From sequence record OR594182: a DNA stretch of 39,734 bases; one strand, given 5' to 3'. The translations under genes and the position numbers were made by a program. The notes below the pieces were generated by a model. The model saw only the letters and a list, made by a program, of their open reading frames with translations, ran no database searches and was not told the origin of the DNA. Position 1 is the first letter of the stretch. The number at the start of each line of letters is the position of its first letter. This stretch comes from Escherichia phage vB_EcoM_SHAK7854. This document shows positions 1 through 26,235 of this stretch, one piece after another.

Positions 1-1731
1 ATGACTGCACGTATGAAGTCAGACTTCGTGTTCTTCCTGTTCGTCCTGTGGAAAGCTCTGTCGCTCCCAGTCCCGACTCGCTGTCAGATTGACATGGCGA
101 AGAAACTATCGGCTGGGGACAACAGGCGCTTCATCCTACAGGCGTTCCGTGGTATAGGGAAGTCCTTCATTACGTGTGCCTTCGTTGTCTGGAAGCTATG
201 GAACAACCCAGACTTGAAGTTCATGATTGTGTCGGCCTCAAAGGAGCGAGCCGATGCTAACTCCATCTTCATCAAGCGAATCATCGACCTCATGCCTCAG
301 CTTCAGGAACTCAAACCTAAGCAGGGACAGCGAGATGCGGTTATTAGCTTCGACGTGGGACCTGCCAAGCCAGACCACTCACCTTCGGTTAAGTCCGTTG
401 GTATCACTGGTCAGTTGACTGGTAGTCGTGCTGACATCCTGATTGCCGATGACGTGGAGGTTCCGAACAACTCAGCGACTCAGGCTGCACGAGACCGTCT
501 ATCAGAGCTTGTGAAAGAGTTCGACGCTATCCTGAAGCCGGGAGGTACGATCATCTATCTGGGTACTCCTCAGAACGAGATGACCCTGTACCGTGAGCTG
601 GAAGGTCGTGGGTACACCACTACTATCTGGCCCGCTCGTTATCCACGCGACAGGAAGGACTGGCAGTCTTACGGCGACCGTCTGGCTCCTATGCTTCAGG
701 CAGAGCTGGAAGAGGACCCTGAGTCCTTCTACTGGCGTCCGACTGATGAAGTACGCTTCGATGATACGGACCTGAAGGAACGTGAGCTGTCCTACGGTAA
801 AGCTGGCTTCGCTCTACAGTTCATGCTTAACCCGAACCTGAGTGATGCCGAGAAGTACCCTCTTAAGCTCCGTGACCTTATCGTAGCCGACTTGGACCCA
901 GCGTCCAGCCCAATGGTCTACCAATGGTTGCCGAACCCTCAGAACAAGCGTGAGGACGTTCCTAACGTTGGACTCATGGGTGACTCGTACCACACGTATC
1001 AGACTGTAGGTTCTGCCTTCAGCTCATACACCCAGAAGATTCTGGTCATTGACCCTAGTGGTCGTGGTAAGGATGAAACTGGATATGCGGTACTGTACCA
1101 GCTCAACGGCTACATCTTCGCTATGGAAGTTGGTGGCATGCGTGGTGGTTATGAAGACTCTACGCTGGAAGCCTTGGCTAAGATTGGTCGTAAGTGGAGG
1201 GTAAACGAATACGTCATTGAGGGTAACTTCGGTGATGGTATGTACCTTGAGCTATTCAAGCCTGTATCGGCCCGTATCCATCCTGCGGCTGTAACTGAAG
1301 TGAAGAGTAAGGGTCAGAAAGAACTACGCATCTGTGACGTTCTGGAGCCTATCATGGGGTCTCACAGACTTATCGTTAACGCTGCTGCTATCGTCCAAGA
1401 CTACCAGACAGCCTCTGACAAGGATGGTGTTCGTAACCCTATCTACTCTCTATTCTATCAGATGACACGTATCTCTCGTGAGCGTGGAGCCTTGGCACAC
1501 GATGACCGACTTGATGCGCTGGCTATCGGTGTACAGTTCTTCGTTGAGTCGATGGCTAAGGATGCCAACAAAGGCGAACGTGAAGTCACTGAGGAATGGC
1601 TGGAGGAACAGATGGAGAACCCACGGAAAGGCTTCGAGTCCATCCACACTGAGTTCTGGGACAATGGGGTCCGGGTAACTCACGATACGGACGACGAGCT
1701 TGGACTAGGGTCATACGTTACGTTCCACTAG
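1..1731 (+). CDS. DNA packaging terminase large subunit (T7 gp19 family); 5-prime partial at window start, N-terminus supplied by 39702..39734 if the molecule is circular
   Basis: 576-aa ORF, collinear with T7 gp19 from about residue 12 ([55 protein letters not shown]). Confidence 0.93.
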
Positions 1732-1825
1732 CTGAATGAATAACTATAGGTGAAAGCTGCATGAATAAGCAGTTAGTAACCTATAGTTACTACCAGTCTA
1801 ACATACTGTTTTACAAGGAGTTTGG

Positions 1826-23838: not shown

Positions 23839-23861
23839 ACTAAACTATCACTATAGGGAGA
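23839..23861 (+). promoter_or_regulatory. phage RNAP promoter (phi10-like, strongest consensus match)
   Basis: ACTAAACTATCACTATAGGGAGA; +1..+6 GGGAGA as in T7 class III. Confidence 0.8.
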
Positions 23862-23963: not shown

Positions 23964-25013
23964 ATGGCAAACGTTCCGGGTCAGAAAGTTGGTACAGACC
24001 AAGGTAAAGGCAAATCTGGTTCCGACGCTCTGGCGTTGTTCCTGAAGGTCTTTGCTGGTGAAGTCCTGACCGCATTCACTCGCCGCTCTGTAACTGCTGA
24101 CAAGCATATTGTCCGTACCATTCAGAACGGTAAGTCTGCTCAGTTCCCGGTCATGGGACGCACCTCTGGGGTGTATCTGGCTCCGGGTGAGCGACTGTCC
24201 GATAAGCGTAAAGGTATCAAACATACCGAGAAAGTGATTACCATTGATGGTCTGCTGACTGCCGATGTGATGATTTTCGACATTGAAGACGCGATGAACC
24301 ACTATGACGTGGCTGGCGAGTACTCCAACCAGTTGGGCGAAGCTCTGGCTATCGCTGCCGATGGTGCGGTACTGGCTGAGATGGCTATTCTGTGTAACCT
24401 ACCGGCTGCATCTGATGAAAACATCGCTGGTCTTGGCAAAGCGTCTGTGCTGGAAGTTGGTACTAAAGCAGACCTGAACACTCCGGCTAAGCTGGGTGAA
24501 GCAATCATCGGTCAACTGACCATTGCTCGTGCGAAGCTGACATCCAACTACGTTCCTGCTGGCGACCGTTACTTCTACACCACGCCGGACAACTACTCTG
24601 CAATCCTCGCGGCTCTGATGCCGAACGCTGCTAACTATGCTGCGCTGATTGACCCAGAGACTGGTAACATCCGTAACGTAATGGGCTTCGTGGTTGTTGA
24701 AGTTCCACACTTGACTCAGGGTGGTGCTGGGGAAACTCGTGGTGCCGATGGTATCACTATTGCGACTGGTCAGAAGCACGCCTTCCCAGCTACTGCTACT
24801 GGTGATGTTAAAGTTGCTCTGGACAACGTTGTGGGCCTGTTCTCTCACCGTTCTGCTGTAGGTACTGTTAAGCTGCGTGACTTGGCGCTGGAACGTGACC
24901 GTGACGTCGATGCTCAGGGCGACCTGATTGTTGGTAAGTACGCTATGGGTCACGGTGGTCTGCGTCCAGAAGCAGCAGGCGCACTGGTTTTCACAGCGGC
25001 GTCAGCGGGTTAA
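23964..25013 (+). CDS. major capsid protein 10A (T7 gp10A family)
   Basis: 349 aa; KSAQFPV, HTEKVITIDGLLTADV, YSAILAALMPNAANYAALIDPE, HRSAVGTVKLRDLALER, KYAMGHGGLRPEAAG. Confidence 0.95.
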   Translation: MANVPGQKVGTDQGKGKSGSDALALFLKVFAGEVLTAFTRRSVTADKHIVRTIQNGKSAQFPVMGRTSGVYLAPGERLSDKRKGIKHTEKVITIDGLLTADVMIFDIEDAMNHYDVAGEYSNQLGEALAIAADGAVLAEMAILCNLPAASDENIAGLGKASVLEVGTKADLNTPAKLGEAIIGQLTIARAKLTSNYVPAGDRYFYTTPDNYSAILAALMPNAANYAALIDPETGNIRNVMGFVVVEVPHLTQGGAGETRGADGITIATGQKHAFPATATGDVKVALDNVVGLFSHRSAVGTVKLRDLALERDRDVDAQGDLIVGKYAMGHGGLRPEAAGALVFTAASAG

Positions 25014-25276
25014 CGACCTTTAAGGCCCTCTCTACAGAGGGTCCTACCTTAGAGACGTATAGTTCTACGGTGGGGACCAGCTTGAAGGTTGACTTCCCGG
25101 AGCTTTCAGATGTGACCGATTGGTCGCTTCTTGAGGTGACTACGCCTGATGGTGTTAGCTACTCCCGTAGAACCAACAGTCTCTACTTCAAGGCCACCTC
25201 TGGCGTGGAAGGTCTGGTGATTGTTGGGTATGACGGTGCGCCTGTGCGTTCCTTCAACGTATCTTTCACAAACTAA
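23964..25276 (+). CDS. minor capsid protein 10B-like, predicted product of a -1 ribosomal frameshift at GGTTTTC (24986..24992)
   Basis: same heptanucleotide context as the T7 10A/10B shift site; -1 frame open from 24938 to the stop at 25274..25276. Confidence 0.45.
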
Positions 25277-25281
25277 TTGAA

Positions 25282-25320
25282 ACCCCTTGGGTGCCTTCGG
25301 GTGCTTGAGGGGTTTTTTTG
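25282..25320 (+). terminator. Tphi-like terminator after the capsid gene
   Basis: AACCCCTTGGGTGCCTTCGGGTGCTTGAGGGGTTTTTTTG resembles T7 Tphi. Confidence 0.8.
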
Positions 25321-25340
25321 CTTAATGATGAGGAGGGACT

Positions 25341-25430
25341 ATGTTCCTTATTTACACATGGTTAGCACTATTCGTCTTATTCTGGGCGTACCTGCTGCCC
25401 AGCTCACCGTCTAGCCCCTATGACCGCTAA
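25341..25430 (+). CDS. hypothetical small hydrophobic peptide (29 aa) between Tphi and gene 11
   Basis: GAGGAGGG RBS 6 nt upstream; MFLIYTWLALFVLFWAYLLPSSPSSPYDR. Confidence 0.3.
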   Translation: MFLIYTWLALFVLFWAYLLPSSPSSPYDR

Positions 25431-25441
25431 GGAGTAAACCT

Positions 25442-26008
25442 ATGTCTCAATACATTCCACTTAATGCTAACGATGACTTAGATGCCATCAACGATATGTT
25501 AGCTGCTATTGGTGAACCAGCAGTCCTACAGCTTGACGAAGGTAACGCTGACGTCTCGAACGCTCAACGTATCCTGCATCGTGTTAATCGTCAGGTCCAA
25601 GCTAAAGGCTGGAACTTTAACATCAACGAAGCTGCTGTCCTGACGCCTGATGTCCAAGACAACAGGATTCGATTCCTGCCGTCTTACCTTCGGGTCATGA
25701 CTGCTGGGGCCACCAGCTACTACAGCAACATGGGTGGATACCTATACGACCTGTCCACTCAGTCAACCACTTTCACCGACCCTATAACGGTAGAGCTTGT
25801 TGAGATGAAACCGTTCTCGGAGATGCCTGTGGTATTCAGGGACTACATCGTTACCAAGGCCAGCCGTGAGTTCAACGCTAAGTTCTTCGGTAGCCAAGAG
25901 TCTGAACTGTACCTTCGTGAGCAGGAATCAGAACTCTATCAGCAGGTCATGGAATACGAGATGGACACTGGTCGCTACAACATGATGTCCGACATCGGGA
26001 GGGACTAA
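25442..26008 (+). CDS. tail tubular protein A (T7 gp11 family)
   Basis: IGEPAV, RILHRVNRQVQAKGWNFNI, GGYLYDLSTQS, YIVTKASREFNAKFFG, MEYEMDTGRYNM. Confidence 0.92.
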   Translation: MSQYIPLNANDDLDAINDMLAAIGEPAVLQLDEGNADVSNAQRILHRVNRQVQAKGWNFNINEAAVLTPDVQDNRIRFLPSYLRVMTAGATSYYSNMGGYLYDLSTQSTTFTDPITVELVEMKPFSEMPVVFRDYIVTKASREFNAKFFGSQESELYLREQESELYQQVMEYEMDTGRYNMMSDIGRD

Positions 26009-26235
26009 TGGCTAGTCACAACCTGAAGATTCACCGCCAGCACTTTGGTCCGGTACAACTAGGTCTAAAGACAGCAGAGCTGAGACTTAACGACCGGGAC
26101 TTTAAGGTTGGCGACTGGCTTATCCTGAATGAGTGGGACAACGGGTATACTGGACAACAGGTAGCACGTAAGGTTGTCCACATTGCTGACGTTGGTGACA
26201 TCGCTGAGGGATACGTCCTAATGAGTATGATTTAA
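26008..26235 (+). CDS. small ASCH/PUA-like domain protein (75 aa) inserted between gp11 and gp12
   Basis: GLKTAELR fits the ASCH signature GxKxxExR; TAATG coupling to gp11; GGGAGGG RBS. Confidence 0.55.
   Translation: MASHNLKIHRQHFGPVQLGLKTAELRLNDRDFKVGDWLILNEWDNGYTGQQVARKVVHIADVGDIAEGYVLMSMI

Follow-up and report, generated by a model that had tools for sequence, protein, structure and literature searches.

Gene 10 of the Escherichia phage vB_EcoM_SHAK7854 very probably encodes two capsid proteins with a common N-terminus: 10A, the major capsid protein, and a longer minor protein, 10B, made by a −1 ribosomal frameshift a few codons before the 10A stop and predicted to end in an Ig-like domain. 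The DNA analysed (record OR594182), referred to here as the window and used for all positions unless another locus is named, is 39,734 nucleotides long. This is the complete genome of a T7-like phage in the genus Kayfunavirus, and its gene 10 region is 99% identical to those of several sequenced Escherichia phages. The recoding event is the textbook T7 gene 10 case, already annotated in close relatives, and no new mechanism is involved. A long 10B is likewise not unusual in the family, that of T3 having 433 residues. What we add is that the extra length corresponds to an unclassified Ig-like domain, that this domain lies in an exchangeable cassette between the slip site and the terminator, and that the product is mis-annotated in most database records. 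A C-terminally extended 10B had been predicted in an earlier, sequence-only reading of the window, and the prediction is supported by the constraint on the slip site, by purifying selection on the −1 frame peptide and by the lack of an independent start signal.

The proposed slip site and its conservation

Gene 10A occupies positions 23964..25013 of the plus strand and, according to the ORF list, encodes a protein of 349 residues and 36.3 kDa in the 0 frame. The protein matches the Gp10A-like family in Pfam (5e-105), is 96% identical to the capsid chain 9vvq in the PDB and is homologous to T7 gp10A (2xvr). The Shine–Dalgarno (SD) duplex at its start has an energy of −7.3 kcal/mol. Upstream of the gene, a T7-type late promoter core, ACTATAGGGAGA, is found at 23850..23861 (+); this putative promoter, identified by sequence match only, occupies the position of phi10 in T7 and T3. 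Proteins of the 10A type (347–349 residues) are named ‘minor capsid protein’ in PDB 9vvq chain I and in GenBank MT862763 and MN067430, which looks like a naming error inherited from BLAST matches to 10B.

The proposed site of slippage is the heptamer G GTT TTC at 24986..24992 (+), encoding Val342-Phe343. Its GTT (24987) and TTC (24990) are 0-frame codons 342 and 343 of the 349 in 10A, and after the TTC there are six sense codons before the 10A stop codon, TAA, at 25011. In the −1 frame the nearest upstream stop is a TAA at 24935..24937, and from 24938 onwards the frame stays open up to a TAA at 25274..25276 (+), the predicted 10B stop codon, which is part of an AAC TAA ending common to K1F and GA2A. 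The computed product of a −1 slip has 343 + 94 = 437 residues and a mass of 45.9 kDa. The heptamer near the 10A stop, the −1 frame open from 24938 through 25276, the addition of about 95 residues to give about 437, and a 10B about 10 kDa larger than 10A had all been put forward in the sequence-only reading, and all are borne out by the sequence, the ORF check and the computed lengths and masses.

In the proposed mechanism, most ribosomes would read 23964..25013 to give the 349-residue 10A, and a minority would, as they decode G GUU UUC at 24986..24992, slip back by one nucleotide. The slippage would be a tandem one, in which the A-site tRNA-Phe re-pairs from UUC to UUU and the P-site tRNA-Val from GUU to GGU, keeping two of its three pairs. 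The slipped ribosomes would then translate the −1 frame as far as 25273 and complete the 437-residue 10B. The heptamer deviates from the strict X XXY YYZ form. It is the sole in-frame slippery-type heptamer in the overlap of 10A with the −1 frame, and GGTTTTC occurs only twice in the window compared with 3.8 times expected from shuffled sequences, that is, not above chance. What gives it weight is therefore the frame in which it lies, where it is placed and how it is conserved among relatives, rather than its bare occurrence.

Conservation was assessed in a set of 70 sources of the capsid gene end, consisting of the window, 11 GenBank records (T7, T3, K1F, Peacock, U8, KP32, JA10, PP47 and GA2A among them) and 58 IMG/VR contigs. 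Among 68 related loci, an in-frame GTT TTC is found 5–8 codons before the 10A stop in every scorable locus except T3, and in the codon alignment the pair is invariant in 67 of 67 capsid genes. Val342 is always encoded by GTT, whereas the other 14 of the 15 invariant valine columns vary synonymously across the same 67 genes. Only 21 of the 183 degenerate columns that are invariant in amino acid are also invariant in codon, and the adjacent V342 and F343 are both among these. Such synonymous constraint is a signature of selection acting on the RNA sequence.

The bases flanking the codon pair are less uniform. The base that follows is A in all loci but one; the preceding base, a G in most loci, is replaced by C in the JA10 group and by A in the PP47 group. 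Phages of the latter two groups thus have C GTT TTC or A GTT TTC, yet their Ig-like extension is intact and conserved. That they keep the extension under selection without the G before GTT suggests that the A-site phenylalanine slip is the essential part of the signal, and re-pairing at the first position in the P-site seems not to be required. This agrees with the TTTTCA site shown by mass spectrometry in Kvp1 (PMC2579914).

The T run within the site raises the question of the level at which slippage would occur. If the phage RNA polymerase added one U at the run of four T's and the resulting minority mRNA were read normally, the one-nucleotide insertion would yield the same protein, and to a sequence analysis such as ours slippage at the RNA and at the ribosome look alike. 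We nevertheless consider transcriptional slippage extremely improbable. The run comprises only four T's, productive polymerase slippage usually requires much longer homopolymer runs, and what is conserved is GTT TTC as a pair of codons in frame rather than any longer run of T's. Furthermore, the events at the same motif in T7 and Kvp1 are described as ribosomal frameshifting (PMC5009743; PMC2579914).

No convincing structure that might serve as a proximal 3′ stimulator at the canonical spacing of 5–9 nt was found in the window lineage. The 75 nt that follow the heptamer fold no better than shuffled sequences (z = −0.7), and a 125-nt fold, with z = −2.4, is not counted as part of the signal. 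Rfam gave nothing near threshold. The strongest hairpins begin 14–36 nt past the heptamer, their positions differing between lineages, and the KP32 lineage alone has a clearly structured hairpin together with a compensatory change. In these KP32-like phages a 12-bp hairpin starts ~29 nt past the heptamer (~1333..1360 of the KP32 locus, L005) with z of about −4, and in the locus L066 the two arms have changed in a compensatory manner from CGGACGG/CCGUCUG to CGGGUGG/CCACCUG.

Probable translation of the −1 frame

The −1 frame runs without a break from slip site to extension end in each of the 65 distinct sequences. Counted from the slip, the extension has 91–103 residues among loci with the Ig-like domain, 48 in K1F and 56 in T7, and the −1 frame remains intact even though the position of the 10A stop shifts among loci between 5 and 8 codons after the slip. 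The pattern of substitution is that of a translated sequence under purifying selection. Read in the −1 frame, the domain has a dN/dS of 0.13–0.18 when compared with relatives of 85%, 78% and ~50% identity, and the linker that precedes it, taken from the 10A stop to the first start codon possible, has values of 0.07 and 0.23 in the two informative comparisons, with the 85%- and 78%-identical relatives, respectively. Variable sites in the domain among close relatives are distributed 14/10/44 over the three codon positions. In tblastn searches the extension peptide matches 454 phage records with identities down to 41%: 75–99% in Kayfunavirus, ~44% in the KP32-like Klebsiella phages (Przondovirus) and 41–46% in Dickeya and Pectobacterium phages. 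Ningirsuvirus and Pektosvirus are also among the genera matched in this way, and a homologue in Caroctavirus, 50% identical, is dealt with separately below.

These data bear directly on whether the slip site and the downstream frame could be evolutionary leftovers from which nothing is expressed in this phage. Extensions of the 10B type can be replaced, different and shorter ones being present in K1F and T7, and one relative, L021, is without half the domain. The low dN/dS combined with the strong third-position bias, the intact frame in every one of the distinct sequences and the conservation of the protein across genera all argue to the contrary, and we give the leftover explanation almost no credence.

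Another alternative is that the extension is translated without any frameshift. The 68-residue ORF at 25070..25276, or a longer form of it, would then be translated alone from an internal start and give a separate decoration or minor capsid protein. This ORF, initiated by GTG, is present in the ORF list, and the Ig-like domain of ~74 residues falls almost wholly inside it; most related records annotate a separate ‘hypothetical protein’ or ‘minor capsid protein’ here, and certain other T7-like phages have Ig-like proteins that decorate the capsid as separate products, P2_50 of Peru-2 being one. The start itself, however, has little to commend it. The SD duplex of the GTG at 25070 is −2.9 kcal/mol, which equals the median of random positions and compares with −7.3 to −12.8 kcal/mol for the neighbouring genes 10, 11 and 12. 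This GTG is the only internal start candidate, there being no ATG, GTG or TTG in the linker before 25070, and yet the start-free linker is under purifying selection in the −1 frame. Neither is the start conserved, gene callers beginning the extension ORF at no fewer than seven places to give products of 55–87 residues. Throughout at least five divergent lineages the domain keeps to the −1 frame relative to 10A, with no interruption between it and the slip site, and the synonymous constraint on the slip site also speaks against separate internal initiation. The absence of an SD signal, the unconserved start, the selected linker and the continuous −1 frame together make independent initiation very unlikely.

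Readthrough of the 10A stop codon was also considered and was rejected, as the 0 frame stops again 13 codons past the TAA and the domain is in the other frame.

The reading we favour is thus programmed −1 frameshifting at G GTT TTC. Of the features expected of a T7-type gene 10 frameshift, the window has, at the level of sequence, the heptamer, the overlapping ORF, the synonymous constraint and a protein-like extension that lacks initiation signals of its own. Peptides predicted from the −1 frame of 10B include ALSTEGPTLETYSSTVGTSLK and VDFPELSDVTDWSLLEVTTPDGVSYSR. The predicted junction peptide of the slipped protein is ...ALVFHSGVSGLTTFK, and ...EAAGALVFHSGVSGLTTFK would place the slip at Val-Phe|His.

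The annotation of related phages does not reflect this product. Most related GenBank records call a free-standing hypothetical ORF of 55–87 residues, or mislabel 10A, in place of what we predict to be the correct product, a joined minor capsid protein of 437 residues. When a large protein collection, composed of gene-caller ORFs, was queried with the junction, no joined full-length 10B was returned.

The Ig-like extension as an exchangeable cassette

The part of the predicted protein that is specific to 10B consists of a linker and a domain, both encoded in the −1 frame of the plus strand. The linker, which begins HSGVSGLTTFKALSTEGPTL, comprises residues 344 to ~363 (24992..25051), and it overlaps the 3′ end of 10A by 22 nt. 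The domain comprises residues ~364–437 (25052..25273). An AlphaFold2 model of the extension, built from an alignment of 50 sequences, has residues 1–18 disordered (pLDDT < 50) and, after residue 18, a seven-strand β-sandwich with pLDDT of ~90. On this model the appended C-terminal module has an Ig-like β-sandwich fold.

Sequence comparisons do not place the domain in an established family. No Pfam match at E < 0.1 was obtained for the extensions of the window, KP32 or PP47, and the PHROGs family to which the extension belongs, phrog_7473, is listed as of unknown function. A profile search of 1.84 billion representative proteins gave just 12 matches, some of them weak ones to Big_2 or BACON repeat proteins. 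Alignment with the Big_2 domain of T3 gave an hhalign probability of 0.1%, the two being unrelated in sequence, and no sequence relation was found to the extension of T7 or K1F. Since there is no significant match to Big_2 (PF02368), we describe the domain as Ig-like in fold and do not class it as Big_2. In the PDB no structure was found for the extension, the entries being 10A-type chains only (9vvq, 7y23 and 2xvr).

The organisation of the region is clear from an alignment of the window with K1F, GA2A and T7. The sequences are near-identical, with few synonymous differences, through GGTTTTCA, then diverge completely, and converge again at AAC TAA and the terminator. With T3 included in the comparison, three unrelated inserts are found in the slot between GGTTTTCA and AACTAA, which in the window corresponds to 24993..25273. 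The first, in T7 and K1F, is a helical, low-complexity tail of 44–53 residues. The second is the Ig-like domain of the window type, present in most Kayfunaviruses, in the KP32-like phages, in CR8 and in PP47. The third is the Big_2 domain of T3, which is accompanied by a different slip site, C CCA AAG. Judged from these alignments, the 10B extension behaves like a cassette that can be exchanged, with the slip site and the terminator as its limits.

The terminator that forms the distal boundary is located at 25279..25322 (+), or at 25279..25316 if delimited more narrowly. It is a predicted intrinsic terminator resembling Tphi, consisting of a 17-pair hairpin, with ACCCC in the 5′ arm, and a following T run. 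It folds at −25.2 kcal/mol and starts 3 nt past the 10B TAA, as the earlier proposal of a Tphi-like terminator after the extended stop had it. The sequence is almost the same as that of the terminators found after 10B in K1F, GA2A and T7, and in all lineages examined the terminator lies 2–13 nt past the 10B stop. Pairing at long range between the slip region and the CCCC of the terminator was inspected by eye and discarded, only ~5 bp being possible in the window.

Two small ORFs lie further downstream on the plus strand. Between the terminator and gene 11, a hydrophobic ORF of 29 residues, MFLIYTWLALFVLFWAYLLPSSPSSPYDR, is found at 25341..25430. Its SD signal of −12.8 kcal/mol is among the strongest measured here; it is annotated as hypothetical in close relatives, is absent from K1F and GA2A, and its product may be a small membrane peptide. 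An ORF of 75 residues at 26008..26235 lies between genes 11 and 12, and its counterpart in GA2A is annotated ‘RNA-binding protein’. The T7 gene map presumably has no gene at this position.

In L021 (IMGVR_UViG_2974604219_000001) a natural deletion at ~1660..1782 has eliminated both the C-terminal half of the domain and the terminator and has joined the −1 frame to a homologue of the small hydrophobic ORF. This suggests either that the Ig-like domain is probably not essential for growth or that the L021 contig is a defective variant.

As 10B would have the first 343 residues of 10A, we propose that it co-assembles with 10A into the T=7 shell, to which it would add a flexible linker of ~20 residues and an Ig-like β-sandwich of ~74 residues. 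The domain would probably project from the outer surface of the capsid. Its function may be the weak accessory binding of surfaces rich in carbohydrate, for instance mucus, bacterial capsule or LPS, an assignment we make tentatively and purely on the analogy of other Ig-like decorations in phages. On a wider view, and with similar reserve, the domain could represent an unclassified Ig-like family, missing from Pfam, that hundreds of enterobacterial T7-like phages carry as a swappable cassette and that is mostly mis-annotated as a stand-alone ORF; it would perhaps be a natural capsid-displayed adhesin that affects retention in mucus or capsule, the counterpart of the Ig-like domains engineered onto K1F 10B. 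Kayfunaviruses and the KP32-like phages of Klebsiella are candidates for therapy, and K1F 10B serves as a scaffold for display. Many natural relatives displaying an Ig-like domain, and an exchangeable segment between GGTTTTCA and the terminator, would bear on display design, on immunogenicity and on the prediction of mucus adherence.

Comparison with known systems

The programmed −1 frameshift of T7 gene 10A/10B was reportedly described by Condron, Atkins and Gesteland in 1991. For the details of the T7 signal we have followed the Atkins review of 2016 and Slootweg 2006. The window shares with T7 the heptamer G GUU UUC (PMC5009743), placed in both phages on corresponding Val-Phe codons shortly before 10A ends, and a terminator of the Tphi type with ACCCC directly after the 10B stop. 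The sequence-only reading had pointed to the T7 gene 10 context, and the likeness indeed extends beyond the heptamer, the sequence through GGTTTTCA being near-identical in T7, K1F, GA2A and the window. The extensions differ: that of T7 amounts to 53 net residues, lacks Ig-like character and is without a Pfam match, whereas that of the window adds 94 residues and is Ig-like. In T7, frameshifting depends in part on a CCCC of the terminator, which lies more than 200 nt downstream (PMC5009743). As a consequence of the 94-residue Ig-like extension, the terminator, with its ACCCC arm, is ~290 nt from the slip site in the window compared with ~175 nt in T7. About 10% of translations frameshift in T7 (PMC1635266); we infer slippage and its efficiency in the present phage, and the ~10% figure is that of T7.

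T3 10B, in which a −1 frameshift adds an Ig-like domain, is the classical example of such an addition (Fraser et al. 2006, cited through PMC5009743 and PMC13320782), and structural proteins of phages extended in this manner are the class reportedly described by Fraser et al. As predicted for the window, the frameshift is at the homologous capsid gene end and appends one Ig-like domain, giving proteins of similar size (433 residues in T3, 437 here). The two differ in that T3 slips on C CCA AAG at a lysine, two codons downstream of the T7-type site, and in that its domain is a member of the Pfam family Big_2 (4.5e-10).

The closest annotated counterpart is that of Peacock (QEG09703.1), which has a joined CDS of 437 residues over the same span, named ‘minor capsid protein’. 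The nucleotide sequences are 98.5% identical and the proteins differ by a few amino acids only. A joined 10B is likewise annotated at G GTT TTC in the Citrobacter phage CR8 (YP_009004195.1), its Ig-like extension being homologous to that of the window (50% identity, E = 5e-27); CR8 belongs to another genus, Caroctavirus, and its 10B has 430 residues. The GenBank note to CR8 10B states ‘matches in mass spectrometry analysis’ and does not specify peptides unique to the extension; the CR8 genome announcement does not describe those mass-spectrometry data. In Kvp1, a Kluyvera phage, a −1 slip at TTTTCA on phenylalanine was demonstrated by mass spectrometry of a minor band that ran above the capsid protein (PMC2579914). 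TTTTCA is present in the window too, and Kvp1 differs in its shorter extension, its 10B being of 42.1 kDa.

Two capsid proteins with a shared N-terminus have been found in virions of T7, Kvp1 and K1F (PMC1635266; PMC2579914; PMC6277420). In the literature on virion proteomics of the Ig-type 10B we found only the CR8 note and a study of SH4, whose extension is 99% identical to that of the window and for which the 36-kDa major capsid protein alone is listed (PMC4925675). 10B was perhaps outside the database searched in that study, and if it was missing the SH4 result is uninformative.

K1F, the type species of the genus, has a 10A ~96% identical to that of the window, and the slip site and its 47-nt context through GGTTTTCA are identical in the two phages. 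It differs in having a short, T7-type tail, of 44–48 residues after the slip depending on how these are counted, with no Ig-like domain. The K1F 10b frameshift product enters virions and has been used to display GFP and foreign Ig-like domains (PMC6277420; PMC13370021). An Ig-like domain on 10B, which in K1F was engineered, is thus what the window phage would carry naturally.
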